The notes under the pieces: model-generated | The model's input: only the letters and a program-made list of their open reading frames with translations | Database searches by the model: none | Told to the model about the DNA's origin: nothing | Shown: positions 1-39,037 of the stretch, one piece after another | How the letters are laid out: the number at the start of each line of letters is the position of its first letter | How positions within the stretch are numbered: the stretch's first letter is position 1 | DNA from: Thermoguttaceae bacterium | GTDB taxonomy: Bacteria > Planctomycetota > Planctomycetia > Pirellulales > Thermoguttaceae | DNA length: 39,148 nt | NCBI GenBank assembly: GCA_049515555.1 | Contig: JBEKTY010000067.1 | Location: 1 to 39,148 of the forward strand | Direction of reading: 5' to 3' | Made by a program: the position numbers and the translations under genes

Positions 1-150
1 TTGTCATAACACAGCGCGCCCCCGCGGGGGGGGGGCGCCCCCGGGCCGTTTCTTTCAAAAACACCCCCCCCCCCGCTCTGTTTTTTTGGGGGGGGGGGGG
101 GGGGGCGCCCCGCCCGGGCCCCCCCCCCCCCCCCGCCACCGGAAGACATA
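1..150. repeat. Low-complexity region with long G and C homopolymer tracts (G10, C12, T7, G19, C17) at the window edge
   Basis: Read directly: runs such as gggggggggg, cccccccccccc, ggggggggggggggggggg and ccccccccccccccccc lie within 150 nt at the contig edge. This is either an assembly/sequencing artefact or a G4/i-motif-prone tract. Confidence 0.6.
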
Positions 151-3688: not shown

Positions 3689-3850
3689 GCGGTTAGGAAC
3701 CGCGAAAGAGTGCCTTGAGCAAGTTCCAGCGACGGTGGCACGTCCCTGAGCGCAGCGAAGGGCGTGGTTCTTCGCACCTCGCCACGCCCTTCGTCCCTCA
3801 GGGCGTGCCACCCCAGTTGGTCGACTTATCTCCTCGCGGTTCCTAACCGC
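3689..3850. repeat. Family-A palindromic MITE/REP-like element, copy 1. Core GGTGGCACGTCCCTGAGCGCAGCGAAGGGCGTG ... CACGCCCTTCGTCCCTCAGGGCGTGCCACC, flanked by 15-bp terminal inverted repeats gcggttaggaaccgc / gcggttcctaaccgc
   Basis: Inverted repeat read directly. The core recurs at 9164-9301, 14686-14798 and 28749-28856, with a 15-bp fragment at 6158-6172. The element is intergenic between the Hsp20 3' end and the URO-D-like start. Confidence 0.8.
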
Positions 3851-3887
3851 AGGGGCGTGAACGATTACAGATCCTCCGAGCCAGGCG

Positions 3888-4563: not shown

Positions 4564-6018
4564 ATGTTAACGCTCATCAACAGCAATCGCATGCTGCCGC
4601 CGATCGCCCCGCTCGGGCTCGATTATGTGGGGGCGGCCGTGCGCCAAGCGGGGATCGAGGTCGATTTGCTCGACCTGTGCCTGGCAGACAATCCGGCCGG
4701 CGCGGTGCGGCACTACTTCCACACTCGGCAGCCCGAGTTGATTGGCGTCTCGTTTCGCAACATCGACGATTGTTTCTGGCCCAGCGGGGCGTGGTTCGTC
4801 CCGGACCTCGGGCAACTCGTGGCCCGTGTGCGCGGGCTATCGGGTGCGCCCGTCGTGCTGGGCGGCGTCGGATATTCGATCCTTGCCGCCGACGTGCTCC
4901 GCGCCTCCGGGGCCGATTTCGGCATCCGCGGCGACGGCGAACAGGCCGTCGTGGAATTGCTCGCCGAGTTGCGAGGCCCAAGGCGCTGGGATCGGGTGAG
5001 CGGGCTGCTGTGGCAAGAGGATGGCATAGTGCACGAGAACCGCCCGGCCTGGCCTGGCACACTGGCCGTACCGGCCGCCCGCGACATGGTAGACAACCCG
5101 ACGTATTTCCGCCTGGGCGGGCAGATCGGCGTGGAGAGCAAGCGCGGCTGTAGCCGCCAGTGCAGCTATTGCGTCGATCCGCTGGCCAAGGGCCCGACCG
5201 TCCGCCTGCGGCCGCCTTCCGACGTGGCCGGCGAGATGGAAGGCTTGCTCCGGCAGGGGATCGACGTATTCCACCTCTGCGATGCGGAGTTTAACCTGCC
5301 GCCCGGCCACGCCCGCGACGTCTGCGACGAGCTGATCCGCCGCGGGATTGGTTCCCGTAGCCGGTGGTATGCCTACCTTGCCGTCCTGCCCTTCGACGCG
5401 GACCTGGCAGGGCGGATGGCCCGGGCGGGCTGCGTGGGCATCAACTTCACCAGCGATTCGGCCAGCCCCGCCATGCTCGCCAGCTACGGGCAGCCGCATC
5501 GGCAGGCGGACCTCCGCGCGGCGATCGGGCACTGCCGGCAGCACGGCATTGCCGTCATGTGCGACCTGCTCCTGGGCGGTCCCGGCGAGACCGTCGACAG
5601 CGTTACGCAGTCCATCCGTTTCTTTCAGCAGGCCGGGCCGGATTGCGTGGGGGCGGCCCTGGGGCTTCGGCTCTATCCGTCAACGCGCATCACGGCCACG
5701 GTCGCCCAGGAAGGCCCGTGGGAGAGCAACCCCAGCATCCGCCGCCATTACGAGGGCCCGATCCATCTGCTGCGGCCCACGTTCTATATCTCAAGCCTGC
5801 TGGGCGAGCGGCCGGCCCGGTTGGTACGCGATCTGGTCGCCGGCGACCCGCGCTTCTTCGAGCCGGAAGAGGAAACCCCGGCCGCCGATCGGCCCGGCAT
5901 CGCGGGCGACCACAACTACAACGCCAACCGATCGTTGGCCAATGCAATACGTTCCGGCGCCCGGGGTGCATACTGGGATATTCTGCGAACTGGAAAAGGT
6001 GTCAGGAACCGTTTCTGA
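4564..6018 (+). CDS. B12-binding-domain radical SAM protein
   Basis: The ORF frame runs 4402-6018. The internal ATG at 4564 gives MLTLINSNRMLPPIAPLGLDYVGAA..., an N-terminal B12-binding-like Rossmann segment. The radical SAM motif CSRQCSYC (Cx3Cx2C) is present. Confidence 0.85.
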   Translation: MLTLINSNRMLPPIAPLGLDYVGAAVRQAGIEVDLLDLCLADNPAGAVRHYFHTRQPELIGVSFRNIDDCFWPSGAWFVPDLGQLVARVRGLSGAPVVLGGVGYSILAADVLRASGADFGIRGDGEQAVVELLAELRGPRRWDRVSGLLWQEDGIVHENRPAWPGTLAVPAARDMVDNPTYFRLGGQIGVESKRGCSRQCSYCVDPLAKGPTVRLRPPSDVAGEMEGLLRQGIDVFHLCDAEFNLPPGHARDVCDELIRRGIGSRSRWYAYLAVLPFDADLAGRMARAGCVGINFTSDSASPAMLASYGQPHRQADLRAAIGHCRQHGIAVMCDLLLGGPGETVDSVTQSIRFFQQAGPDCVGAALGLRLYPSTRITATVAQEGPWESNPSIRRHYEGPIHLLRPTFYISSLLGERPARLVRDLVAGDPRFFEPEEETPAADRPGIAGDHNYNANRSLANAIRSGARGAYWDILRTGKGVRNRF

Positions 6019-6114
6019 AGAAGGTGTCAGGTGAAAAAGGTGTCAGGAACCGTTTCGATGCACCTCCGTCGGAACAGGCGTCGGCACCGCGCGGATTACA
6101 TCGTTCCTGACACC
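5994..6114. repeat. Cluster of short repeats: aaaaggtgtcaggaaccgtttc twice (5994-6015, 6035-6056), a shorter gaaggtgtcagg between them, and an inverted copy cgttcctgacacc at 6102-6114
   Basis: Read directly. The first unit overlaps the last 7 codons of the radical SAM CDS (KGVRNRF*). Confidence 0.7.
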
Positions 6115-6333
6115 GGCCTTGATCGTAACCTTGCCCAATGCTAGCTGCGCTGGCATCGGGTGGCACGTCCCTAGAAGAAAGTGCCGATGCCGAACGTGTG
6201 CCTTGTCTTCAGCGTCGATTACGTCAATACGTTTGAAATGCTCGAAGACCTGAACGTTAAGTTCATCTTGAGCACCAAGAATCGCCGAGGAAAATGAATT
6301 GCTAGGGGGTTCTAATCCCGACGCCGGATCGTC

Positions 6334-7323
6334 TTACGACAGTTGCAGGCCCAAATCGAGGCGGCGGGCGTTTTCCAGGGCCCGCGCTGCGGCGCATAAA
6401 TCCTGAATCGCCACGCCGACCGACTTGAACAGCGTAATCTCGTCGGCGCGGCGCCGGCCCGGCGACCGCCCCAGCACGACTTCGCCCAGCTCGGTGCCGA
6501 AGTGCGACTGTTCGATCAGGCCTTGCTGCAAGGGTTGCAGCAAATCGCCCGCTTCAGCCAGTGCCGCGGCCCGATGGTCTACGACCACGCGGGCCCGGCA
6601 GACGACGGCGGCCGGGATCTCCGCCATGTCGCGCCGGTAGGCGCCGACGGCATTGACGTGCGCGCCGGCGGGCAGCTCGCCCTCGGCGAAGACCGGCCGG
6701 CAGGAGGAGGTGGCAGTGCAAACCACGTCGGCACCGGCCAGGTTCCTGGCGGGTGTGTCGGCACGCTCGACCGGCACACCCAGGCAATGGCTCATCTCGG
6801 CGGCAAAGCGATCCGCGGCAGACGGGTCGGCGTCATAAACGGATGCCCGGCGAATGGCCCGCACGCGGCACACTGCTTCCAGTTGCGTGCGTGCCTGCAC
6901 GCCGGCGCCGAAAACGGCCACCGCCGCGGCCTCGGATCGGGCCATTAGATCGGTGGCCAGACCGGACGCGGCGCCGGTGCGGATGGCGGTGAGGCTCGTG
7001 CCGTCCATCACCGCCAGATGCGCCCCGCTGACGCCGTCGATCAGGACCACTAGCGCCTGCACTGTCGGCAGCCCGCGCCGCGGATTGTCTGGAAACACCG
7101 TAACGGTCTTCAAGGAGAACATTTTTAGCGCGAGGGAGTGACAGGGCATAACCAGAAGGTCGCCATGCGCGTCCGGCGCTGGCAGACATTCGCGCTTCGG
7201 CAGCGTCACCTGCCCGCTGGACAACTGTGCGAAGGCTTCGCGCATGGCTGTAATCGCGTCGGTCATCGGCAGCGCGCGGCGCACGTCCGCCGCGGAAAGA
7301 TAGAGCAGTGGCGTGGTGTTCAT
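6334..7323 (-). CDS. Ornithine cyclodeaminase / mu-crystallin family protein (NAD(P)-dependent imine reductase / alanine-dehydrogenase-like)
   Basis: 329-aa ORF. It has the Rossmann motif AVFGAGVQA and OCD-family length and architecture. Its start overlaps the stop of the upstream gene by 4 bp (ATGA). Confidence 0.85.
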   Translation of the reverse strand: MNTTPLLYLSAADVRRALPMTDAITAMREAFAQLSSGQVTLPKRECLPAPDAHGDLLVMPCHSLALKMFSLKTVTVFPDNPRRGLPTVQALVVLIDGVSGAHLAVMDGTSLTAIRTGAASGLATDLMARSEAAAVAVFGAGVQARTQLEAVCRVRAIRRASVYDADPSAADRFAAEMSHCLGVPVERADTPARNLAGADVVCTATSSCRPVFAEGELPAGAHVNAVGAYRRDMAEIPAAVVCRARVVVDHRAAALAEAGDLLQPLQQGLIEQSHFGTELGEVVLGRSPGRRRADEITLFKSVGVAIQDLCAAARALENARRLDLGLQLS

Positions 7324-8903
7324 GGCAATTTACGACTTGCGCATGGGGCGCCGCAGCCGCCGGGTTTCAAAGCCCGGGCCGACGGCGCGACGGCAAGGCC
7401 TCCCTTGGATGTGCAACGCAATTCCGCGGGCATGGCCAGCCCCACGGCGTAAACGGCGTCGATCGTCTCGTCGAGCGGGATGAAGTTCGTGTACCCGCCG
7501 AGCCCAAGGTCGGCATTGACAAAGGCGCCGGCGGCGGCGGCCGCGTTGCGGGTGTGACAGGGAATCTCGACCATGCCCTGCACAAGGTCGCAGACGCTGC
7601 CCATGGTGTTCTGAAAACTGATCGCGGCCGCATCGCAGGCCTGGCGGGCCGTGCCGCCGACGGCGTCCACGACCGCGGCGGCGGCCATGGCGCCGGAGGC
7701 CCCGATCTCCACCTGGCAACCCGCCACCTCCGCGGCAAAGGTTCCGCGGATCGCCAAGATCGTGCCGACGGCGCCGGCCGCCAGCAGGGCCAGCCCGATT
7801 TGCTCGCGGGTCAACGAGCGCTCCTCGGCCAGCGTCACGAGCACGGCCGGAATAACGCCCGCGGAGCCGCCGGTGGGCGCGGCGCACACCACGCCCATCG
7901 CGGCATTCACGTGCATCACGGCCAGGGCCCGTGCCGCCGCCCGCGTGTGCGGGCTCCGCGCGGAAAGGCGCGATTCCGCCTCCGCCTGGAAAATGGCCCC
8001 GGCACAGGCGGGCAGCAGTTGCAGGCCGGTGAAGTTCGGGTCCAGCCCGCTCTGGACCGATCGCGCCATGATGTCGTAGCGCCGCAGCATTTCCGCCATA
8101 ACGTCTGCCGGGCTGATGCCCAGCAACTGTGCCTCGTAGGCCAGCGCCAGTCGGCCCAGCGAAAGGCCCAGTCGTTCGGCGCGCTGCACCATCTCGGCCG
8201 CACTTGAGAACTGGGGCTGGCCCGCTTGCACGAAGTAAACCGGCGTGGATTCCCACACCCGGGCGCTCGGGTCCCTGGCACGCAGCTCGCCGCGGAAGGT
8301 CGCCGGCAACGCGGCCTTGCGTCGGGCCGTCAGTCGCACCCGGCCATTCTCGCCAGAGTCGATTGTGCTTTCCAAGACCTGGCCATCGCCTGCGAGCAGC
8401 CCGCCGGCGGCGCCGGCTGTATCGGCAGAGACTTCCAGCAGCGTCTCGTAAGCCGCACCGTTGAACCGCACCGGGCGGCCGTTCAGGCTGGTAATCTGCA
8501 CTTCCCCGCCGCCGATGGAGCGTGCCGCCAGACGCAATGTAGAACCGTCGGCCGCAGTGAGAGCCATTTCCACCGTGTTCGGATGGTCCGGCTGGGCAAG
8601 CTTCCGGACCTCGAAGCTGATTTCCATCCCGGCCTGCGGCGCGTCGCCCAGCGCAGTAAAAAACGATTCGTCGGTCAACGGCTTGCCCAGCAGTCCCATG
8701 GCAAAGCCGCGGTCGGCCCCCTGCGCGGCGTAGGTGACGGAGTAAGAGCCGGCCGGGTCGAAGGCCAACGCCGCCCGGCGCGGCGCGCCTCCCAGAATCG
8801 AACGGGCCATGCAGGCGATGTGAAACGCGCCCGCCGTGTGCGAGCTGGACGGCCCGCGCATCACCGGACCGAGCACATGATTGAGGATACTGACGGCCCT
8901 CAT
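7320..8903 (-). CDS. sdaA: L-serine dehydratase, iron-sulfur dependent, single-chain (beta+alpha fused)
   Basis: 527-aa ORF. The N-terminal ...GPVMRGPSSSHTAG... motif matches the beta segment and ...PTGGSAGVIPAVL... the alpha segment. It is translationally coupled to the downstream OCD-family gene. Confidence 0.9.
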   Translation of the reverse strand: MRAVSILNHVLGPVMRGPSSSHTAGAFHIACMARSILGGAPRRAALAFDPAGSYSVTYAAQGADRGFAMGLLGKPLTDESFFTALGDAPQAGMEISFEVRKLAQPDHPNTVEMALTAADGSTLRLAARSIGGGEVQITSLNGRPVRFNGAAYETLLEVSADTAGAAGGLLAGDGQVLESTIDSGENGRVRLTARRKAALPATFRGELRARDPSARVWESTPVYFVQAGQPQFSSAAEMVQRAERLGLSLGRLALAYEAQLLGISPADVMAEMLRRYDIMARSVQSGLDPNFTGLQLLPACAGAIFQAEAESRLSARSPHTRAAARALAVMHVNAAMGVVCAAPTGGSAGVIPAVLVTLAEERSLTREQIGLALLAAGAVGTILAIRGTFAAEVAGCQVEIGASGAMAAAAVVDAVGGTARQACDAAAISFQNTMGSVCDLVQGMVEIPCHTRNAAAAAGAFVNADLGLGGYTNFIPLDETIDAVYAVGLAMPAELRCTSKGGLAVAPSARALKPGGCGAPCASRKLP

Positions 8904-9159: not shown

Positions 9160-9305
9160 GGAGGGTGGCACGTCCCTGAGCGCAGCGAAGGGCGTGCTTT
9201 CCAGGCCCGCCACGCCCTTCGTTCCTCAGGGCGTGCCACCCAAATTGATCAACTTGTTCTTCGTTCCTCAGGGCGTGCCACCCAAACTGATCAACTTATT
9301 CTGTC
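9160..9305. repeat. Family-A element copy 3, whose right arm carries a 41-bp internal tandem duplication (9219-9260 and 9261-9301)
   Basis: The core ggtggcacgtccctgagcgcagcgaagggcgtg ... cacgcccttcgttcctcagggcgtgccaccc was read directly. It is followed by a near-identical second copy of cgttcctcagggcgtgccacccaaa(t/c)tgatcaactt. Confidence 0.8.
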
Positions 9306-9314
9306 GCTTACGGC

Positions 9315-14627: not shown

Positions 14628-14633
14628 GAAAAG

Positions 14634-14661
14634 TAGCAGGCACACTCCGTGTGCCTGCTTA
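14634..14661. terminator. Hairpin agcaggcacac-tccg-tgtgcctgct, 7 nt after the FGE-domain gene stop. It is a candidate terminator shared with the convergent gene
   Basis: 11-bp perfect stem read directly. Related copies of the same motif occur at 18201-18278. Confidence 0.45.
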
Positions 14662-14667
14662 CAATAA

Positions 14668-14798
14668 CTTGAGCAAGTTCCAGCGAGGGTGGCACGTCCC
14701 TGAGCGCAGCGAAGGGCGTGCTTCTTCGCACCGCGGCACGCCCTTCGTCCCTCAGGGCGTGCCACCCTAATTGGTCAACTTATTTCCTCGCGGTTCCA
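14668..14798. repeat. Family-A palindromic element copy 4
   Basis: gagcaagttccagcga + gggtggcacgtccctgagcgcagcgaagggcgtg ... cacgcccttcgtccctcagggcgtgccaccctaattggtcaacttatttcctcgcggttcc. It sits between two convergent genes. Confidence 0.8.
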
Positions 14799-14859
14799 AA
14801 GCAGCCCGCACGCCCCGTGTGCGGACATGCGGCACACGGCCGGCGGCCGCTGCAAGGGC

Positions 14860-15847: not shown

Positions 15848-16007
15848 TGAGGACGATACAAGTGGTCCCCCTCTCCCTCCGGGAGAGGGCCGGGGTGAGG
15901 GGAACCTGTGTTGGTCACGAAAAATGGGAAAACAGTATCCTCACCCATTCCCCCTCACCCTAACCCTCTCCCGGAGGGAGAGGGGACCGACCAATCCGCA
16001 ATTTGCA
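15848..16007. repeat. Family-B palindromic MITE-like element copy 1 (tgaggac ... caatttgca), with ~38-bp inverted arms containing the ccctctccc-N3-gggagaggg palindrome and ggggtgagggg
   Basis: Arms read directly: ggtccccctctccctccgggagagggccggggtgagggg / cccctcaccctaaccctctcccggagggagaggggacc. A second, roughly 85% similar copy by eye lies at 35811-35966. Confidence 0.8.
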
Positions 16008-18194: not shown

Positions 18195-18200
18195 GCGAAG

Positions 18201-18278
18201 GTAACAGGCACACTCCGTGTGCCGTCCGCCATGCCTTTGTCCGCTTCAGCGGACGGCACACGGAGTGTGCCTGCTACC
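18201..18278. promoter_or_regulatory. Nested palindrome in a divergent intergenic region: two inverted copies of (a)ggcacac-tccg-tgtgcc flanking an inner hairpin gtccgc...gcggac
   Basis: Read directly: gtaacaggcacactccgtgtgccgtccgc catgcctttgtcc gcttca gcggacggcacacggagtgtgcctgctacc. Confidence 0.5.
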
Positions 18279-18406
18279 TTCATGCCGTAAACGGTTACCG
18301 TAAAGACAATACCCCCACGATTACGAACTGTTCATCCTAACCTCGCGCCCTTACGGCTGCAACGCAGGAGAGAGTGCGAAGGAAAGGACTCGCGGCGCGG
18401 AGACGA

Positions 18407-21801: not shown

Positions 21802-21809
21802 AAGGTTGT

Positions 21810-21887
21810 GGTGGGGCTCGCTAGCGCTCGACCCACCCTACATCTTCGCCTCCTCGTAGGGTGGGTCGAGCGCTAGCGAGCCCCACC
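21810..21887. terminator. Perfect 32-bp inverted repeat with 14-nt loop between convergent genes (candidate bidirectional terminator)
   Basis: ggtggggctcgctagcgctcgacccaccctac atcttcgcctcctc gtagggtgggtcgagcgctagcgagccccacc, read directly. Confidence 0.7.
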
Positions 21888-21895
21888 AGAACCCG

Positions 21896-23992: not shown

Positions 23993-24039
23993 GGCCTGTC
24001 TCCTCGATCAGCTTGGATTGATTTGGGCCAATAAGGGCC

Positions 24040-24123
24040 GGCCGAAGAATTAGTTCGGCATCTTCCGTACTCCTCTCGCTCCGCGAGAGGAATGGCATCA
24101 CGCGGAGCGTGATGCGTACGGAA
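24040..24123. promoter_or_regulatory. Cluster of three hairpins in a divergent promoter region: gccgaa-gaattag-ttcggc, then an outer stem cttccgtac/gtacggaag enclosing two tetraloop hairpins (cctctcgc-tccg-cgagagg and catcacgc-ggag-cgtgatg)
   Basis: Read directly, between GH36 start (23992, minus strand) and the esterase start (24376, plus strand). Confidence 0.45.
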
Positions 24124-26886: not shown

Positions 26887-27690
26887 ATGAACGTTGGAAA
26901 ACAGGTGCGGATGAATCGGATTTTCGCCCATCCTTCCGGGCATCTGTGCTCGGTGGCGGTGGATCATTTCATCAACTACGGCTATGAGATGCCCGAGGGC
27001 CTCCGCCACTTCCGGCAGACCCTGGCGGAAGTCGTGGCCGCCAGGCCCGACGCGGTGACGATTCACAAGGGGCTTGCGGCCGCGGTGTGGGCGGCCCACG
27101 CGGGCCGGGTGCCCTTGATCCTGCAAAGCTCGCTGGGCCGCCCCGGCGAGCCCGCTTGCGAGCAGATTGCCCAGCCCGAGGATGCGGTCCGACTGGGCGC
27201 CGACGGCTTTGCCGTGGCGGCCTTCGTGCGCGGGGCCGGCGAGGCGGCCCATCTGCGGCGGGTGGCCGATTGCGTGCGCCAGGCGGTGGCCTTCGAGATG
27301 CCCGTCATCTGCCACATCTATCCGCGCGACAAGGCGAGCAACATCTCCTTCGCCCCGGACGACATCGCCTGGGCGGTGCGCTGTGCGGTCGAGGTGGGCG
27401 TGGACGTGGTCAAGACGCCCTTCTGCGGCGACGTGGCGGCCCACGCCCAGATCGTCGCCGATTGCCCGCTGCCGCTCGTGGCGGCCGGCGGCCCCAAGGC
27501 CGACTCGCTGCCCGCGGCCCTGGAAATGATCCGCCAGGTGATGCAGAGCGGGGCCCTGGGGGCCACCATCGGACGCAATATCTGGGGCTTCGACCAGATC
27601 CGCGCGGCCGTGCATGCCTTCAAGGCGGTGATCCACGACGGCAAGGAACCCCGCGAGGCACTTCGGCTCGCCGGGCTAGCGGCTTCGTAA
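26887..27690 (+). CDS. Class I aldolase of the DhnA/FbaB (archaeal-type) family
   Basis: The ORF frame runs 26782-27690. The ATG at 26887 gives [28 protein letters not shown]... Length and pattern are typical of DhnA-type class I fructose-bisphosphate / sugar-phosphate aldolases. Confidence 0.75.
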
Positions 27691-27727
27691 TCCCCAAATC
27701 CCTATACCGTTTCAGGAGGATTCCCAA

Positions 27728-28729
27728 ATGGCAAGACCGATCACGCTGTGCACCGGCCAATGGGCCGACTTGCCCGTGGAGACGCTGGCAGTCAAGGCCA
27801 AGGCCTTCGGCTTCGACGGCCTGGAGCTGGCTTGCGCCGGCGACCACTTCGAGGTCGCCAAGGCGGCCGGCGATCCGCACTACGGCCAGAACAAGCGGAA
27901 AACGCTGGAGAAACTGGGCATGCAGGTGTTTGCCATCAGCAATCACCTGGCCGGGCAGGCGGTGCTGGACCACGTCGACGCGCGGCACAAGGCCATCTTG
28001 CCGGCCTATATCTGGGGCGACGGCGACCCGGCGGGCGTCAGCGCCCGGGCGGCCGAGGACATGAAGAACGCCGCCCGCGCGGCCCGGCAACTGGGCATCG
28101 GCGTCGTCAACGGCTTCACCGGCTCGAGCGTCTGGCACCTGCTGTACTCGTTTCCGCCGGTGCCGCCGGCGATGATCGACGACGGCTTCAAACTCCTGGC
28201 CCAGCGTTGGAACCCGATCCTCGACGTGTTCGGCGAGTGCGGCGTGAAGTTCGCCCTGGAGGTGCATCCCACCGAGATCGCCTTCGATCTGTACACGGCC
28301 CAGCGGGCCCTGGAGGCGCTGGACCATCGTCCGGAGTTCGGGTTCAACTTCGACCCCAGCCACTTGATCTGGCAGGGGGTCAATCCGGCCCGCTTCATTC
28401 GCAAGTTCCCCGGTCGGATCTTCCACGTGCACATGAAGGACGCCATCGTGCGGCTGGACGGCGACAGCGGAATTCTGGCCAGCCACCTGAACTTCGGCGA
28501 TCCGCGGCGGGGGTGGGATTTCCGCTCGCTGGGTCACGGCAGCGTAAATTTTGAAGAGATCATCCGCGCGTTGAACGACGCGGGCTACGGCGGCCCGCTA
28601 TCGGTCGAGTGGGAAGACAACGGCATGGACCGCGAGCACGGCGCCCGGGAGGCCTGCCAGTACGTCAGGAAGCTCGACTTCGCTCCCAGCCGGGTGGCCT
28701 TCGACGCGGTGTTCGACAAGCCCAGTTAG
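27728..28729 (+). CDS. Sugar phosphate isomerase/epimerase (xylose-isomerase-like TIM barrel)
   Basis: 333 aa. Conserved His/Glu/Asp blocks ([20 protein letters not shown]) are typical of AP-endonuclease-2 / xylose-isomerase-like TIM barrels. Confidence 0.8.
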
Positions 28730-28745
28730 CATTTAACCACACTCC

Positions 28746-28856
28746 CGCGGGGTGGCACGTCCCTGAGCGCAGCGAAGGGCGTGGTTTGCGGGCCTGCCAC
28801 GCCCTTCGTCCCTCAGGGCGTGCCACCCAATTGTCAAACTTGTTCTTTCGTGGGCC
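28746..28856. repeat. Family-A palindromic element copy 5, inserted in a short operon spacer and flanked by a perfect 20-bp direct repeat ttagcatttaaccacactcc (28725-28744 and 28857-28876; +/-1 nt)
   Basis: Core and flanking direct repeats read directly. The left direct repeat contains the stop codon of the upstream gene. The right one sits immediately 5' of the ggagg RBS of the next gene. Confidence 0.8.
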
Positions 28857-28890
28857 CTTAGCATTTAACCACACTCCGGAGGCACGGATC

Positions 28891-30231
28891 ATGAGCGCCA
28901 GTCACAGGGCCCTCGTCGAGGACCTGGAACAAGCCTTGGCCCAACTGCCGATGTTCGACGTACACACGCACCTGGTGGGCGGGCGGCTCGGCGCCCGCGG
29001 CCTGCACGACATCATCTTGTACCACATGGTCGTCAGCGACCTGTACGCGGCCGGCTGTCCCAGCGGGGCGCGGCTCACGCAGTATCCCGGCTGGCCCGAG
29101 AAGGCCGAGGCCCACGCGCGGATCGAGGAGGCCCTGCCCTACCTGCCGCGGATCCGCAACACGAGCTGCGCCTGGATGGTGCGGATCATTCTGCGGGACC
29201 TGTACGATTGGCACGAGCCGATCACCGAGGGCAACTGGCGCCGCCTGGACGAAATCATTCGCCGCCGGGCCGACGACCGCGCCTGGCAGCATTCGATCTT
29301 CGACCGCCTGAACATTCGCCGCACGTGCGCGGAGTACGCCCGCCGGGGCCCGGGCGAAGACGACGCCCGGCTGCAATACTCGCTGGAGTGGGCCTTCTTC
29401 ACGCGCTGTCAATGGGGCGAGTTCGACACCGCGCTGTACGAGCTGGAACACTGCTGGGGGCGGCAGCCCGAGCCCCCCTCGCCGATCGGCGGGCAGCGGC
29501 CGCCCAGCCAGCGCGTCGTTCGCAGCCTGGAAGACGTGCACGCGGCGATCGAGTATTACGTCAACACGATCCCCTACGAGCAGCTTATAACCACGGCCAC
29601 CACCGTATCGACCGACATCGACTATCGCCCGGTGGGCGACGGCGAGATGGCCGCCGCCCTCCGGCGGCGGGAGCAGGCCGGCCCCGCCGAGCGCGACATT
29701 TATTCATCCTACATCAACGAAGCCTTCCTGACGGCCCTGGAGAAACACGCCGACAGGATCGTCTTCCAGTTCAGCGTGGGCGCCGAGCCCATGCCCTATG
29801 AGACCGCCTGTATCCTCTACCAGCGGACGATCAGGCAATTGGCCGAGATGATCGGGCGGCATCCGCGGCTGCACTTCCAGTGCTTCCTGGCCGCGCGGCA
29901 CGCCAACCAGGCCTTCTGCACGCTCGCCCGCGAGTTGCCCAACCTGAGCCTGGCTGGCTATTGGTGGCACAACTTCTTTCCCCACAGCATCCGGCAAGTC
30001 ATCGCCGAACGGCTCGACATGCTGCCGCTCAACAAGCAGATCGGGTTCTTCTCCGACGCCTATTGCGTGGAGTGGGTCTACGGCAAGGCGCGGATGGCGC
30101 AGAAGCAGTTGGCCCGCGTGCTGGCGGAAAAGATCGAACAAGGCCAGTACACGCGCGACGAGGCCCTGGCGATCGCGGCCACCATCCTCTACGACACGCC
30201 CCGCGAGCTGCTGCACATGGCTCCCGGTTGA
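28891..30231 (+). CDS. Glucuronate isomerase (UxaC)-like / amidohydrolase-superfamily protein (distant)
   Basis: The ORF frame runs 28609-30231. The ATG at 28891 follows ccggagg. The N-terminal FDVHTHL metal-binding motif is present. The C-terminal block GYWWHNFF...IGFFSDAYCVEWVYGKARMAQKQLARVLAEKIEQGQ aligns by eye with the E. coli UxaC C-terminus (GSGWWFNDQ...[20 protein letters not shown]...). Confidence 0.55.
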   Translation: MSASHRALVEDLEQALAQLPMFDVHTHLVGGRLGARGLHDIILYHMVVSDLYAAGCPSGARLTQYPGWPEKAEAHARIEEALPYLPRIRNTSCAWMVRIILRDLYDWHEPITEGNWRRLDEIIRRRADDRAWQHSIFDRLNIRRTCAEYARRGPGEDDARLQYSLEWAFFTRCQWGEFDTALYELEHCWGRQPEPPSPIGGQRPPSQRVVRSLEDVHAAIEYYVNTIPYEQLITTATTVSTDIDYRPVGDGEMAAALRRREQAGPAERDIYSSYINEAFLTALEKHADRIVFQFSVGAEPMPYETACILYQRTIRQLAEMIGRHPRLHFQCFLAARHANQAFCTLARELPNLSLAGYWWHNFFPHSIRQVIAERLDMLPLNKQIGFFSDAYCVEWVYGKARMAQKQLARVLAEKIEQGQYTRDEALAIAATILYDTPRELLHMAPG

Positions 30232-30300
30232 GCCCAGGCGAATGTCATACTTGACGAACCAAAAGAGAAGCCCTCGGCGACGCTGGAAGACGACGGCATT

Positions 30301-30441
30301 CTAGCCGCCGGCCTTCTTCAGCTTCCTAGCCTTCTTCTTTGGCTTAGCCTGGAGCAGCCGTTTGACGGCCTCTTCAAAGGGCAGGTCGATTTTGTTGCTG
30401 TGCGGCCCGTTCCTGGCGCTCACAGCAGTGTGCTTCTTCAT
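30301..30441 (-). CDS. Small lysine-rich ORF (46 aa, MKKHTAVSARNGPHSNKIDLPFEEAVKRLLQAKPKKKARKLKKAGG). It overlaps the 3' end of the upstream gene in another frame. It is either a separate small protein or the true C-terminus after a frameshift
   Basis: Translated by hand from the minus strand. It starts inside the final 67 nt of the 166-aa ORF and has a basic C-terminal tail. Confidence 0.25.
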   Translation of the reverse strand: MKKHTAVSARNGPHSNKIDLPFEEAVKRLLQAKPKKKARKLKKAGG

Positions 30442-30874
30442 GGCCGGATCGCCGTCGCCTCATGATTGTGACAACCTCTCCATACGCACCGTCCGCCAAC
30501 ACTTCCGGTGTGGCGTGGTTTATATCGTCCTCCGGACCAAGCTTGCTTGTCCACGTACCGTCCGCAATTAGTTGACGGGCCGCGTGTGTATACATGCCCT
30601 CACGACCATAGACAGCGATCCTTTCGTATTCCGGTTCGCACGCGGCGGAATCGCAGGCAACATATCCGTACCGCTCAAAGACGCGAACGAGCGATTGAAC
30701 TTTGTAGTTGCAGTAAGGCGGACCGACGGGCCAAAAGCGGCCTGTTACGGGCTCCCACCATTCCCCCCGCGCACCGCAGGCATGCGCGATACAGTTTTCA
30801 TCGGGTACCGGATCGCTGGTCAGGCGATAGTTACCCGTTCGCATGTTGGGGAAGTCTGCAAGGTTAATCGTCAC
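30374..30874 (-). CDS. Hypothetical 166-aa protein with conserved Cys/His positions (possible papain-like Cys-His hydrolase fold; unassigned)
   Basis: GTG start overlapping the upstream stop (GTGA), so it is translationally coupled. The motifs DENCIAHACG, GMYTHAARQL and GTWTSKLG...DDINH suggest a Cys/His catalytic arrangement. The C-terminal 20 aa may be a frame artefact. Confidence 0.5.
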   Translation of the reverse strand: MTINLADFPNMRTGNYRLTSDPVPDENCIAHACGARGEWWEPVTGRFWPVGPPYCNYKVQSLVRVFERYGYVACDSAACEPEYERIAVYGREGMYTHAARQLIADGTWTSKLGPEDDINHATPEVLADGAYGEVVTIMRRRRSGHEEAHCCERQERAAQQQNRPAL

Positions 30875-31614
30875 TTAGCGTACCCGTTTCCTTTACCCCA
30901 GGCTAGCCAGGCGTTGGCAATTTCTCGGAGCTTTCCCCAAGACTCCCGAGGAACTGGATCGCTGCCCGTGATGGCACGCAGCGCCCAGTCCCAGTGATCG
31001 GGTCGTTCTCGCATTTCTTCGAGCAGCAACGGAATCGCGCGGTCTCCCATGCCGATTATCTGCTGGTACGCGGGATGTATCACCAGGTCTGTCAGCTTGG
31101 AGCTGTGGCCGCGATCGGATTTCCAGACAGCGACCAGATTGCTGAAACGTTGCCGCACCGCCTCATGCACCGGCTCTGGCAAACACCCCTCACTCCCACG
31201 CATGGCCTCTCGGATTCGCAGCGCCAGGGACCAGGCCGACTTCGGTGTCACTCCTAGCTCGCGGGCGATCTGGCGGCTGCTGACGCCCTTGCTGCTGCTG
31301 GTCATCAGGTCGAGGGCCCTAAGCCATTTGGACAGCGGCAGCTTGCTTTCCTCGAAGATCGTACCGACCCTTACCGTGAATTGTCGGCGGCAATCCTTGC
31401 ACTTCTTCAGCCCTAGCCGACCAGGACTCTTGCTTCCCGGCTTAGCGACAAGTGGGTAGCCTTTCCCGCCACAATAAGGGCAAACCGGAACACCATTTGG
31501 CCAGCGTTGAGTCTCCAGGAAGCACCGTGCCCGGCCCTCGTCTGTAAAAAGCGCCGAAAGGTTGGTAGGATACGCCTTGGCGGCAGTTCCGGTAAGGGGA
31601 TTCTTCGCGGTCAT
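30871..31614 (-). CDS. Zinc-ribbon + HTH protein whose N-terminus resembles an IS1595-type transposase N-terminal DNA-binding module, fused to a non-DDE ~105-aa C-terminal domain (domesticated transposase-derived regulator candidate)
   Basis: The ORF frame runs 30871-31710. The ATG at 31614 follows gaggaag. The pattern ETQRWPNGVPVCPYCGG...KCKDCRRQFTVRVGTIFEESKLPLSKWLRALDLMTSSSKGVSSRQIARELGVTPKSAW matches, by memory, the Zn_Tnp_IS1595 + HTH pattern (LRWPNG..CP.CG....C..C...FS...GTIF...KLPL.KW...YLM...KGISA.QL...LGV..KTAW). There is no EVDETY/DDE block afterwards. Confidence 0.6.
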   Translation of the reverse strand: MTAKNPLTGTAAKAYPTNLSALFTDEGRARCFLETQRWPNGVPVCPYCGGKGYPLVAKPGSKSPGRLGLKKCKDCRRQFTVRVGTIFEESKLPLSKWLRALDLMTSSSKGVSSRQIARELGVTPKSAWSLALRIREAMRGSEGCLPEPVHEAVRQRFSNLVAVWKSDRGHSSKLTDLVIHPAYQQIIGMGDRAIPLLLEEMRERPDHWDWALRAITGSDPVPRESWGKLREIANAWLAWGKGNGYAK

Positions 31615-31678
31615 AGCTTCCTCGCCTACCCACAATTGTACCCTGATGATCGGGTTTGCCAAGTATAACATTCCACAG

Positions 31679-34600
31679 ATGATACTTGCCCCCCTCTTGC
31701 TCTTGTTCACCGGTGCACTGCTGCCATCGGCCGTTCCGCTGTCCGCGGCGACGCCAGAGCCGGTCGCTATTGCGGCCTTGCCTAAACTGCACAGCGGCGT
31801 GCCAGCCTATCCGGTTCCGTTCATGGCCGTCGCCCGCACGCCGCATACAATCGCCCCCTTGCCCGGCAGGGCCATCGACATCCAAACCGACTTCGGCTAT
31901 CCGGCCGGTTTTTCCGGACTGGTGGACGCGGCGATCGGATCGGTGGGCTACCCCGGCTATCGCAATTTCTCGAACCTGGACATCGCCTACGACGCCGAGA
32001 AGCTTTGCCTGCTGGTTTGCGTGCCCTATCCTTACGGGCGGAAGACGCGGGCCCAGGCCACCGAGCCCTCGCCCGAGCTGCTCGCCGACGACGTCTTCGA
32101 GGTGCTCATCGATCCGCGCGACGAGCAGGGCCGCTCGAAGGGCCCGCTGTATCGCGTCGTGGGCAACGCCGCCGGCGTGTGCCGGATCGACCGCGACCTG
32201 CCGCAAATCGGCCAGCCGCACCAGGCGTGGCAGGCGGCGGTAAAATACGGCAGCATGATGTGGGACCCCATGGGAAGCTGGATGGCCGCCGTGCAGATTC
32301 CCTTCCACGATCTGGGCGGGGCGCCCAAAGACGGCCAGGTGTGGGGCATCCAGGCCGCCCTCCGCTACGTCGATCCGAAGATCACCGCCGTGCTGTCGCC
32401 GGCCGACGATTTTACCGATCGCGCGCGCTTCGCCCGGCTGCGCTTCGACGCCGGGCGGAGGGCCAATTACCGCTGCCATTGGCTCTCGGCCGACGAGATC
32501 AAGCAGGGGACCTTCTGCGTGGGCGGCATCTTCAGCAACGGCGCCCATGAGCCGGCATGGTTCGACGGCCGCGTGACGCTGCAGAAGGGCGATCGGCCGC
32601 TGGGCGGCGGAACCTTCGCCCACGCCGCCCAGCCGCTCTCGAAATACGACGGCGACATGGAGCCCTGTCGATTCCCGTCGCAAGCCTCCGGTCCCACCCA
32701 GCGCGACACTGTCGCCCGGTTGGTAGTGACCGACCGCCAGGCCGCAACGATCGTGTACGACCAGTTCCTGCCGTACTGGCAAATGGCCCCCGGCGAGCGC
32801 GACTGGCTGAAGCGGCATTTCGCCAGGGAATTCACCTTCCACGCCGGCCCTTATCCGTCCCGCGGCGCGATCGACTACCGCATCGACTGCCAGACGTTGA
32901 TGGAGGCCCTGCCCCAGGCGGCCCGGGCCGTGGTGACGGTCACTAGCGGCGGCCGGCAGTTGGCCCGGCAGGAACAGCCGCTGCCCAAGGACGGCAAGAT
33001 CGCCGAGACGATCAACGTCGGCGCCATGACCGACGGGGCGACGTATGAGATCGCCGCGGCCATCGTCCGCAGCGACTCTCAGCCCCTCAGTACGCAGCGC
33101 GAAACCTTCACGCGGAAGGTCATGCCGTTCGAGACCGCCCCGCCGGCCGGTGTGGCGGACCTGGTGTCGCCGCCCTTCACGCCGCCCAAGATCGGCCAGG
33201 ACAGTATCGCCTGCATCGGGCGGACCTATACGCACGGCCGGCAAGGCCTCTTGGAAAGCCTCGTCGCCGCCGGCCGGGAGCTGCTCGCCGCTCCGGCCAC
33301 TCTGAAGGTGAAGGTCGGCGATCAGGCCGCCGTGGCCCTGGCCGGCGACGCGCCCACGCTGGCCGCCCACGGAAAAGGGCAGGCTGCCTGCCGGCAGACG
33401 TTCGCCGGAGCGGGGCTGAAAATGACGGTCGACGGCCGTTTCGACTACGACGGTTTCTACCGCTTCTCGGTGCTACTCGCGCCCGGCGCGGCGGCGGTGG
33501 ACCTCAAGCAGTGCTACTTGGAGCTGCCCATCCGGGAGTCGCACGCCACGCTCATGGACGCGCCCGTGGAGTGGATGTCGAAGGACTGGCGCCGCTCGAC
33601 CGGCTTTCTTCCCGCGGCGCAAGGCCGCCTATGGGACTCCAAGCGATTCCCCTTCGCCGTGCGGGAGCGCAAGGGCAACATGCCGCCCTACTGCTGGATC
33701 GGCGACGACGACCGCGGCATTGGCTACTCCTGCGCCTCGGACCAGGGCATGCACAACGACGACGCCCTGCCCGCCGTAACCATCGATCGCGAAGGCCGGG
33801 CGGTGGTCTTGCGGGCCTGGTTCGTCAACAAGCCCCTCACGCTCGGTGCGCCGCGGACTTTCCAATTCGCCTTGCAGGCCAGCCCCTATAAACCCCTCGA
33901 TCCTCAACACCGCCTGTGGCGCTGCGGCGTGGCCCGGCCCGAGTGCTGCTACGGACCGTCTGGCCGCTACTTTCACTCGGGCTGGGGAATCGGCTGCTAT
34001 TATCCGACGTACGGGCGATTCCTGGACCTCGACCGGAACGCCGAGGCCATCCGCCGCGTCCGCCGCTCGGGCTACGACTTCATCGCCGCCTCCGCCTCCG
34101 CCTGCTCCGAGTGCGGCGGCACACCCGAGTACCAGCAGTTCTGGCGCGAGTGGGGTAGCGCCCTGGGCTGGGACAAAATGCCCCTGGGTCCCTTGCCGGA
34201 ATGGATGCAGAAACTTATGAAAGACTCGGGCCGGCCCTACACCGGCTACGTGGCCGTGGAAAGCGCCTCCAATAGCGCCCCCAGCAACTTGGACTATCGT
34301 GCCTGGTGGTTCCAGCAGGTGGCCGCCAATTGCGACACGAGCATGATCTACCAGGACAATCCGCCCTACGGCTACTTCGATCAGCCGGCCGTGGGCTACG
34401 GCTACACCCGCGACGACGGCCTGCGCGAGCCGACCTCGGCCACCTGGAACGCGCGGACCTTTATGCGACGGGCCCTGCACATAGCCGTCGAGAGCGGCAC
34501 CCGCAACCCGGCCCCGGGTGTCTATCCCAACATCTGCGGCTCGGCCCAAGCGGGCCGCAGCTTCTGCTTCCGCGGCCTCATAGGCGAAGACCTCGAGTCC

Positions 34601-35810: not shown

Positions 35811-35966
35811 TGAGGACCGCACAGACTCTCCCGCTCCCTCCGGGAGAGGGTCGGGGTGAGGGGAACCTGCGTCGGCCACGAAAACTCGAAAGGCCGGGTC
35901 ATCACGTATTGCCCCTCACCCTAGCCCTCTCCCGGAGGGAGAGGGGACCGGGCACCCCAATTTGCA
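35811..35966. repeat. Family-B palindromic MITE-like element copy 2
   Basis: tgaggaccg...ctccctccgggagagggtcggggtgaggggaacctgcgtcggccacgaaaa...cccctcaccctagccctctcccggagggagaggggacc...ccaatttgca. It has the same termini and arms as the copy at 15848-16007. Confidence 0.8.
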
Positions 35967-38900: not shown

Positions 38901-39037
38901 TCGACAAGAAGTGGGACGATAAGAACCTGCTGTACGGCCGGAACGGCATCGCCGCGCTCACCTTCTGCGAGGCGGCAATCTCGCCCGCACAATCGGTTTC
39001 CCCTCTCCTTCCGGGAGAGGGGCAGGGGGTGGTCTGA
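35999..39037 (+). CDS. Secreted multidomain protein: N-terminal LamG/concanavalin-A-like (DUF2341-like) domain, Ig-like repeats, C-terminal sialate O-acetylesterase (SASA/DUF303, GQSN motif) domain
   Basis: The ORF frame runs 35810-39037. The ATG at 35999 gives a signal peptide MTKTIAHMLTVFAMALLLAPPVRSGA. The LamG-like block (IRMYWGQPDA...VWHMSQ) is present. The C-terminal YLIDGQSNALAV ... FWHQGEND pattern is typical of SASA-type carbohydrate esterases. Confidence 0.75.
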   Translation: MTKTIAHMLTVFAMALLLAPPVRSGATQEQPAGAAAKYRGCQHSGSLYILTTPEGADLPATASEEGFPLLVRLTSDFFNFSQAQANGEDIRFTGGGAPLAYQIDDWDAASGTASIWVRVPKIKGNARQEIRMYWGQPDAVSRSSGTAVFNASNGYLGVWHMSQPVKDEVGKLESHDTGTTSSAGIIGQSRRFGPGKGINCGEDITTLPRGSSPHSSEAWFRAEKPNATVLAWGNEQGQGKVVMQLASPPHINMDCYFSGGNVASTNRLPIAQWIHVAHTYKHGDSRIYVNGVLDGVRTTKGAPLAIKSPARMYIGGWYNNYGFVGDIDEVRISDVARSPDWVRLEYENQKPLQTLAGPLVPAGADFSVSEKKMNLLEGASTSVTAKAGGAQKVYWILKRGSREQIAAVDRLSFTFDAGRVAEDESLTIQLKAICANEIKIRNIPVTIKKSIPDPAFTLQAPAKWDGRESIELVPQIANFREMQAKGVGALKYNWTVSGMAVIKEIAPGKLLLKRAQNSGTLVVKLGLSNGGTEISRAATITVKEPAKDAWVERTPDKDEKPVDHQFYARDDGNEGTLYYNGSLSNAADAVFLKVYAGDKLFKTESRKLAADKTYAFSIKLKPGLIKYKVEFGTTTGGRETVLHTVADLVCGDAYLIDGQSNALAVDWGPGEHPDTSPWIRTFGSPGGDAGKGWANAVRRHGPCEIGYWGMDLARRLLESRKMPICIINGAVGGTLIEMHQRNPANHTDPQTIYGRLLRRVELARLTHGIRGAFWHQGENDQEAQGATGGYGWEKYQQYFVDMSAAWKEDYPNLQRYYIFQIWPNSCSMGGRPSSDKLRDEQRTLPRLYSNMSIMSTLGIKPPGPCHFPPAGYAEMARLITPLVERDNYGKVFQNPITPPDLKKAYYTSGTRNEIALEFDQPMAWNDALTTQFYLDGKEGRVASGAVSANVVTLKLPSSADAKTITYLVDKKWDDKNLLYGRNGIAALTFCEAAISPAQSVSPLLPGEGQGVV
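39003..39035. repeat. Partial family-B palindrome (cccctctccttccgggagaggggcagggggtgg) embedded in the last 11 codons of the CDS (…SPLLPGEGQGVV*)
   Basis: Read directly. It shares the ccctctcc-N-ggagaggg palindrome plus the gggg(g)tg motif with family B. Confidence 0.5.

Follow-up and report, generated by a model that had tools for sequence, protein, structure and literature searches.

Family A is a non-coding, palindromic repeat of the Planctomycetota resembling miniature inverted-repeat transposable elements (MITEs), and one of its copies lies between two genes of an operon on a 39,148-nucleotide stretch of DNA from a Thermoguttaceae bacterium (contig JBEKTY010000067.1 of assembly GCA_049515555.1, positions 1 to 39,148; hereinafter the window). 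This copy is bracketed by a perfect 20-nt direct repeat, which an earlier sequence-only reading had interpreted as the unusually long target-site duplication of a recent insertion or else as the outcome of a templated-copy mechanism. We find that the copy has lost one of its two outer arms, and that the 20-nt repeat is the usual 3-nt TTA of a canonical insertion plus 17 templated bases standing in place of the left arm. Accounting for this structure, we give slightly better than even chances to a canonical insertion at a TTA overlapping a stop codon, followed by a one-off template-switch rearrangement. The parts of the locus are listed here by window position:

28726..28745, + strand: left copy of the 20-nt repeat, TTAGCATTTAACCACACTCC; the native junction, comprising TTA (28726-28728, the canonical target) and 17 nt.
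28746..28749, + strand: CGCG, the breakpoint region, as placed from window copies 1 and 3 and from copies in metagenome-assembled genomes (MAGs).
28750..28828, no strand assigned: family-A core, a hairpin of two inverted arms of ~31-34 nt with a loop of ~10 nt (repeat family D1).
28829..28857, + strand: right outer arm, AATTGTCAAACTTGTTCTTTCGTGGGCCC, with a GGGCCC terminus; it matches the right arms of the copies L041 and L036.
28858..28877, + strand: right copy of the 20-nt repeat, starting with a TTA (3 nt) that directly adjoins the end of the element, just as in canonical insertions.

The left repeat copy is continuous with the native upstream sequence, as in the empty site of a relative (L186, see below), and holds the stop codon of the upstream xylose-isomerase-like (XI-like) gene (TAG, 28727-28729), while the right copy lies directly 5′ of the GGAGG ribosome-binding site (28878-28882) of the downstream gene. 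The earlier reading had recognized the repeat and both of these relations; its structure was right, with positions one base low. TTAGCATTTAACCACACTCC is present exactly twice in the window, no third copy appears when up to 3 mismatches are allowed, and the 20-mer is unique to this locus in the ~1.3 Mb of fetched loci. A 20-mer match arose in no shuffle out of 100 that preserved the dinucleotides. The entire structure recurs identically in L004, a contig assembled independently from a different sample, and is hence not an assembly artefact; the left junction is also identical in three further contigs (L002, L003 and L005), which end inside the element.

Between the repeats stand 112 nt of family A (28746-28857), made up of CGCG, the 79-nt core and the 29-nt right arm. 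The core folds with 31 base pairs (DNA fold of -36.9 kcal/mol, z=-6.3), and each of its arms is a small stem-loop in its own right (CACG(T)CCCT...AGGGCGTG). The right arm fits the general pattern ...GTTATTT/GTTCTTT...GGGCCC followed by TWA (W being T or A), and its end is canonical, with GGGCCC directly preceding TTA, just as full-length copies end in many MAGs. The left arm is missing in full, and the 21 nt that separate the left TTA from the core are unlike any arm. Seventeen of these 21 nt equal the right flank, GCATTTAACCACACTCC, and the last four, CGCG, are like the ends ...AGCGA that meet GGGTGG elsewhere; other copies have ...CCAGCGA or ...GAGCGA immediately 5′ of GGGTGG. The CGCG is probably what remains of the left arm at its inner end, and a copy with a single arm is probably immobile, being no longer able to be excised. 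This truncation did not figure in the sequence-only reading; the templated-copy option raised there is nearer to the anatomy than a long staggered cut, with 17 nt copied from the right flank, although the mechanism is one that we infer.

The evidence for insertion comes from L186, a 172-kb contig with 90–95% nucleotide identity to the window, whose XI-like protein is 95% identical and whose gene order is that of the window (melibiase-like, AXE1, PfkB, DeoC, XI-like and the 446-aa gene). At the junction L186 has one copy of the sequence repeated in the window, followed directly by the ribosome-binding site and with no element (cccacTTAGCACGTTCAACCACATTCCGGAGGCACGCATCAT; in wider context ...gacaagcccacTTAGCACGTTCAACCACATTCCGGAGGCACGCATCAT...), and the TTA target is already there at the insertion position. 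As L186 holds this uninterrupted single junction, the insertion in the lineage of the window is real. The earlier proposal that family A is or was mobile is thereby borne out, as is its expectation of relatives with a single junction and no element. That the insertion was recent, as also proposed, receives weak evidence from the identity of the two 20-mers: by our estimate, which takes a flank divergence of ~7%, P(identical 20-mers) is ~0.25 even if the event took place just after the split from L186.

L186 was reached only by a protein-level search, the exact empty-site pattern GTTAGCATTTAACCACACTCCGG not being found in the metagenome contigs. Among 80 loci related to the XI-like protein, L106 is the sole syntenic one (88% protein identity, no element); in it the two genes overlap by ATGA, which confirms the operon, and on account of this divergence it was rejected as an empty site. 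Relatives at 89% identity have tandem units of ~61 nt in the spacer between the XI-like and 446-aa genes, two in L187 (3985-4143) and five in L188 (4002-4356); the unit (...CCGCCGGCCCCGTGCCGGTGGAGCGAAGGTTTGACCACTAC...) is a different hairpin repeat with copy number varying between samples. With this other repeat at the junction, L187-L192 are uninformative on the 20-mer. The XI-like/446-aa junction is a recurrent landing or expansion site. For window copies 1-3, empty sites were sought via homologues of serine dehydratase and HSP20 and none were obtained, the serine dehydratase having no relative closer than 84% and the synteny around HSP20 not reaching beyond the gene. Two orthologous pairs of MAG loci were set aside: L024/L062, in which the site sequences differ and leave no clean empty site, and L045/L099, in which both sites are filled and lie within a gene.

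Nearly all full-length family-A copies have TTA or TAA next to each terminus. The flanking TWA pair is identical in six copies (L007, L008, L012, L031, L075 and L079) and ambiguous or one mismatch apart in another six full-length ones, and we regard a 3-bp target-site duplication of TWA as likely for the family from the aligned copies. Independent support for a 3-nt duplication at a stop codon comes from a palindrome that is not family A: L186 has at 5793-5973, between its DeoC and XI-like genes, a 171-nt palindrome made of runs of GGAGTC/GGAGTT hexamers; its 15-nt terminal inverted repeats (GGAGTCAGGAGTCAG) match perfectly, and each of them is bordered by TAA. The window (27688-27700) has a single TAA at this place, the DeoC stop, yielding a clean 3-nt duplication. 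TTA/TAA sites in a GC-rich genome are concentrated at stop codons. As TTA or TAA joined to a terminus starting with G recreates TAG or TAA(G), insertion into a stop codon is neutral for the upstream gene.

The unusually long, 20-bp target-site duplication of the earlier reading does not fit these copies, since full-length ones are flanked by TTA/TAA only. As a control, each of 76 family-A copies was searched for the longest exact match of its upstream flank with its downstream flank, and randomly paired flanks were treated alike. The match is 20 nt at the 28746-28857 copy, 18 in L105 and no longer than 10 in the 74 others, the random pairs reaching at most 11. Long flanking repeats are not a trait of family A, and the 20 bp are not its target-site duplication; the earlier suggestion that other genomic copies might have ~20-bp flanking repeats applies to just one of the 75 others (L105). 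In that locus (5880-6180), in addition to the 18-nt flanking direct repeat GGTTGTCACCAGCAACGT, a 16-nt repeat GCCGCTATCCGAACAG brackets an adjoining 59-nt segment, and hairpins (GTTATGCT..AGCATAAC) occur in the same region, which appears to be a complex multi-layer mosaic.

Under the explanation we favor, a full element would have inserted at the TTA overlapping the TAG stop of the XI-like gene, in the short operon spacer. In the course of replication or repair of the strong hairpin, the nascent strand would then have slipped from the left TTA to the right TTA across the hairpin foot, copied 17 nt and then returned to the left arm at its inner end. The same result would follow from a backward slip generating a tandem copy, with subsequent loss of the intact copy. 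We infer the order of these events and the switch points. Slippage does occur in family A in this genome, given that copy 2 of the window has a 42-nt tandem duplication comprising the right half-arm and the right arm (9217-9258 and 9259-9300, 40/42 identical; repeat D2). Hairpins and cruciforms of repetitive extragenic palindromic (REP) dimers are known to stall replication and destabilize genomes (PMC3733652).

Several points weigh against this reconstruction. A full-length allele at this TTA was not found, the five metagenome contigs all having the truncated form, and any microhomology at the CC/CGCG junction is conjectural, the left arm being lost. The 3-bp duplication for family A is likely and not proven, and in three copies (window copy 1, L063 and L025) the flanking TWA pair is complementary (TTA...TAA). 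An autonomous element, sought in all fetched loci by means of the arm sequences without the core, returned one weak match only, and no transposase or other open reading frame (ORF) family recurs near the copies in 8-kb windows around 100 loci. Lastly, this is a single event, and an aberrant integration in one step gives the same end product.

Such a one-step integration, which we consider possible but rather doubtful, would make the 20 bp a true duplication: the right end alone would be joined at TTA by the transposase of the element, while on the opposite strand, ~20 nt downstream, host repair or strand-displacement synthesis would create the other junction. The left side would be truncated and 20 nt duplicated in the process, a formal parallel to the insertions of long interspersed nuclear elements with their 5′ truncation and long duplications of variable length. 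The product is indistinguishable from that of the template switch. In favor of this reading are the canonical right end, a left end cut at a non-terminal point and a repeat beginning exactly at the target TTA, and three of the four window copies have damaged left and intact right arms. However, no flanking repeat above chance is seen at other copies that lack the left arm but keep the right end intact (L041, L055 and window copy 2), and by eye the same holds for L077, L084 and L089, which likewise lack the left arm. The stagger, moreover, is apparently fixed at 3 nt here, going by the L186 palindrome and the TWA flanks, and DDE transpososomes fix the stagger length. Truncations of the right arm also occur in the MAG set (14 by pattern match), whereas one-step integration predicts a single damaged end.

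The next alternative turns on the build of family A itself, which combines a MITE-like frame with a core like that of REPINs, i.e., REP doublets forming hairpins that are mobilized by REP-associated tyrosine transposases (RAYTs) (Bertels and Rainey 2011, PMC3116915; PMC3337134). Full-length copies, ~148 nt in length, have a conserved core with a double hairpin, framed on either side by an outer arm of ~35-40 nt (for example, GGGCCCGCGCAAAAATAACCTGTACAAGTTTGAGCGA on the left and AATTGATCAAGTTATTTCTGCGCGGGCCC on the right), as seen in the MAG copies aligned with their flanks. The outer arms are terminal inverted repeats with GGGCCC-type ends and a sequence varying by subfamily (e.g., GGGCCCGCGCA..AATAACTTG / CAAGTTATT..TGCGCGGGCCC), of which the 28746-28857 copy keeps the right one only. 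Two REP-like stem-loops in inverted orientation make up the core, each arm with its own 8-bp stem (CACGCCCT/AGGGCGTG); the two arms differ and form a heterodimer. In L034, L037 and L081 the right arm has CACGCCCA/TGGGCGTG instead, a compensatory change that keeps the stem. The 30-mer of the left core arm has exact matches in at least 100 Planctomycetota MAG stretches (among them Pirellulales, Thermoguttaceae and Planctomycetaceae). A search of Rfam gave nothing above threshold and only matches to generic microRNA-precursor hairpins (26.8 bits against a threshold of 86); the core sequence was not found in the literature searched, nor was there a literature match for the combination of MITE, IS5 family and TAA. 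We conclude that family A is an undescribed palindromic repeat family of uncultured Planctomycetota (Thermoguttaceae, Pirellulales) belonging to the MITE/REPIN-like class.

We consider it unlikely that family A is a REPIN proper rather than a DDE-type MITE, mobilized as single-stranded DNA by a RAYT (an HUH tyrosine transposase), with the 20-nt repeat as a by-product of insertion at the replication fork. The two inverted ~30-nt stem-loops of the core do have REPIN architecture (PMC3116915, PMC3337134), each arm keeping its 8-bp stem, also in the compensatory right-arm variant of L034, L037 and L081, and the core 30-mer is conserved across several Planctomycetota families; tagged REP dimers within longer palindromes have also been described (Di Nocera et al. 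2013, PMC3733652). However, full-length family-A copies end in inverted repeats with TWA beyond each of them, unlike REPINs and elements of the IS200/IS605 type; they have no unpaired terminal GTAG/CGTC tag, with CGTC occurring only inside the stem or loop (by the criteria of PMC3733652); and no Y1 transposase gene recurs beside the copies in the 100 loci.

A shade less likely still, family A may at times move by one-ended, target-primed copying, in which a terminus would be joined at TWA and the remainder made by strand-displacement synthesis with template switching, leaving a truncated far end and long target duplications that vary in length. As a regular mode of insertion this is doubtful because the other copies without the left arm do not show the long repeats expected of it. 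If true, it would amount to a DNA-level bacterial analogue of insertion in the style of long interspersed nuclear elements (LINEs), with the window copy and L105 as the first two examples, and might extend to related palindromic families in these Thermoguttaceae genomes.

We see very little chance that the 20-mer is the core of an attachment site into which a small circular element integrated site-specifically, giving attL and attR. Integrase-mediated insertion typically leaves perfect direct repeats of 15-60 nt; but the 20-mer is nowhere else in the fetched loci and no other copy is tied to it, it is an ordinary native spacer sequence with a diverged form in L186, and the element of 132 nt is too short for a recombinase. 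Coincidence, a pre-existing slippage duplication or a misassembly, which have nothing in their favor but the general frequency of slippage in these intergenic regions, are effectively refuted by the shuffles, in which no chance match is expected, by the position of the element exactly between the repeats with its terminus abutting one, by the single copy without an element in L186 and by the identical structure in independent assemblies.

Turning to the operon, the genes and signals around the insertion are as follows:

27728..28729, + strand: upstream operon gene, a xylose-isomerase-like TIM-barrel (AP_endonuc_2) of 333 aa (Pfam PF01261, E=2e-40).
28878..28893, + strand: ribosome-binding site GGAGG (28878-28882), 8-nt spacer and ATG (28891-28893), from the sequence.
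28891..30231, + strand: downstream operon gene, 446 aa, distantly glucuronate-isomerase-like.

Homologues of the upstream product recovered by protein search are named sugar phosphate isomerase/epimerase. The downstream product gave no hit in a Pfam search and only a C-terminal match to the NCBIfam glucuronate isomerase model NF002794 (E=3e-5, far below the cutoff), such that the UxaC-like label of the earlier reading has weak support. Its orthologue in L106 is 84% identical, and their alignment confirms the ATG at 28891 as the start of the gene. With the element and one repeat removed, the stop-to-ATG distance is 29 nt; the genes are as close as had been claimed, the value itself having been put at ~35 bp. 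Both the stop codon and the ribosome-binding site are intact despite the element. The hairpin, which is also obtained from an RNA fold of the element, is presumably now within the operon transcript; neither an intrinsic terminator nor a promoter consensus was found at the element when sought.

The window has four family-A copies, the other three being:

3696..3843, + strand: copy 1, full length, 148 nt, with arms GGAACCGCGA... / ...TCGCGGTTCC, TTA at 3693-3695 and TAA at 3844-3846.
9163..9307, + strand: copy 2, without the left arm, ending in ...GTCGC followed by TTA (9308-9310).
14663..14797, + strand: copy 3 (repeats D4, D9), with the outer part of the left arm missing and the right arm intact, between two family-B hairpins.

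Three of the four thus have a damaged left and an intact right arm. At copy 1 (3689-3851) the palindrome runs into the flanks, the 4 nt beyond each trinucleotide being complementary (GCGG...CCGC), and the flanks of L063 are likewise complementary (CTG TAA ... TTA CAG); a palindromic target or hairpin-templated correction could produce such an extension. Outside the window, L045 has at ~7100-7210 a family-A core lying in frame within an 819-aa DEAD-box-like helicase ORF (5146-7605, minus strand), translated as ...GGTSLSAAKGV...TPFAALRDVPP..., which is reminiscent of the Rickettsia palindromic elements found inside genes; the orthologue in another MAG (L099, ~630-700) keeps only the left arm. 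An exact left arm of family A also occurs on a viral-classified contig (L201, 1084-1113; IMG/VR UViG_3300031565_014234).

Family A is accompanied in the window by other repeats. A second hairpin family, B (GGTA[A/G]CAGGCACACTCCGTGTGCC...), is found at 18197-18281, 14630-14655 and 14798-14823; the two copies flanking copy 3 of family A differ by compensatory stem changes, and the melibiase/AXE1 spacer, occupied in L186 by a family-B copy (2218-2303), holds another element in the window. The palindromic element at 24033-24115 has GGGCC-type termini after TAA (TAA followed by GGGCCGGCCGAAGAATTAGTTCGGC ... GTAATTTGTCGGCCC) and a different, small-hairpin core, and its make-up suggests a superfamily with a common frame and different cores. 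A third repeat family (CCCCTCTCCCTCCGGGAGAGGG...GGGGTGAGGGG) forms inverted doublets at 15866-15989, 35827-35950 and 39000-39032, and two isolated palindromes, long and near-perfect, lie at 21804-21893 (38-nt arms, 97%) and 453-515 (29-nt arms, 100% complementary). A 279-aa ORF on the minus strand (30871-31710) has the zinc ribbon of IS1595 transposases (PF12760, E=3e-7) but no more than the first ~50 residues of the transposase domain and is probably the remnant of an insertion sequence. The IS1595 family makes 8-bp duplications, and the ORF, a fragment, was not considered as a partner for family A. The region at 30229-31698 (~1.5 kb) cannot be aligned with L186 8378-10090. Early in the window (79-148), ~18 consecutive G are followed by ~16 C; this is possibly a contig-end artefact, and the first ~120 nt are missing from the JGI version of the contig (39,032 as against 39,148 nt).

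The clean pair of filled and empty sites shows that an undescribed palindromic family of Planctomycetota has been mobile. The sites further suggest that insertion is directed to TTA/TAA, trinucleotides that are rare in a GC-rich genome and amount to its stop codons and operon junctions, and that it restores the stop codon. Moreover, long repeats around truncated elements need not be the footprints of a transposase; here they comprise 3 canonical and 17 templated nt. As each relative examined has different palindromic or tandem repeats at this junction and at neighboring ones, intergenic hairpin repeats turn over quickly in this group, and this turnover fragments short-read assemblies at exactly these junctions.

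Among known systems, family A compares most directly with the bacterial MITEs derived from IS5-family elements and their eukaryotic relations, the PIF/Harbinger (Tourist) elements, which are likewise ~150 nt long, non-coding, multi-copy and largely palindromic, with terminal inverted repeats, TTA/TAA on both sides and presence/absence polymorphism between relatives. IS5 and PIF elements give 3-bp TTA/TAA duplications. Family A differs from these MITEs in that no autonomous partner or transposase was found for it, and in that its most conserved part is the central double stem-loop, while its termini vary by subfamily, a pattern which may partly be due to the way the copies were retrieved. The copy described here departs from them further, having lost one terminal repeat and being flanked by a 20-nt duplication rather than one of 3 nt. 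With REPINs, family A shares the inverted stem-loop doublet, the short spacer, heterodimeric arms and intergenic as well as occasionally intragenic copies, and, as in the REP-dimer palindromes (PMC3733652), the doublet is set in a longer palindromic carrier. It is set apart from REPINs by terminal inverted repeats and TWA, by the lack of the GTAG/CGTC tag and of any RAYT association found, and by a host phylum barely covered in the REPIN literature.

The Correia elements (NEMIS) of Neisseria are MITEs of ~100-150 nt with inverted repeats that lie between co-transcribed genes and form a hairpin in the mRNA; they duplicate TA and have defined promoter and RNase III effects. The present copy is alike in placing a hairpin between co-transcribed genes, but has no promoter or terminator consensus. 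For the rearrangement, the closest precedents are the precise and nearly precise excision of Tn10/Tn5 and quasipalindrome-templated mutation, in which a palindrome is deleted or made more perfect. In common with these are the strong hairpin, the short direct repeats, breakpoints at the hairpin foot and an adjacent duplication, whereas here a direct copy of the opposite flank has taken the place of one arm, an outcome requiring either two switches or two events in succession. Finally, 5′-truncated LINE insertions are target-primed and have target duplications of 7-20 bp. Although no reverse transcriptase, poly(A) tail or RNA intermediate is present here, and other truncated copies are without duplications, the family-A copy is like a LINE insertion, by analogy only, in that one of its ends is canonical and the other truncated, and in that a long duplication starts from the canonical target.

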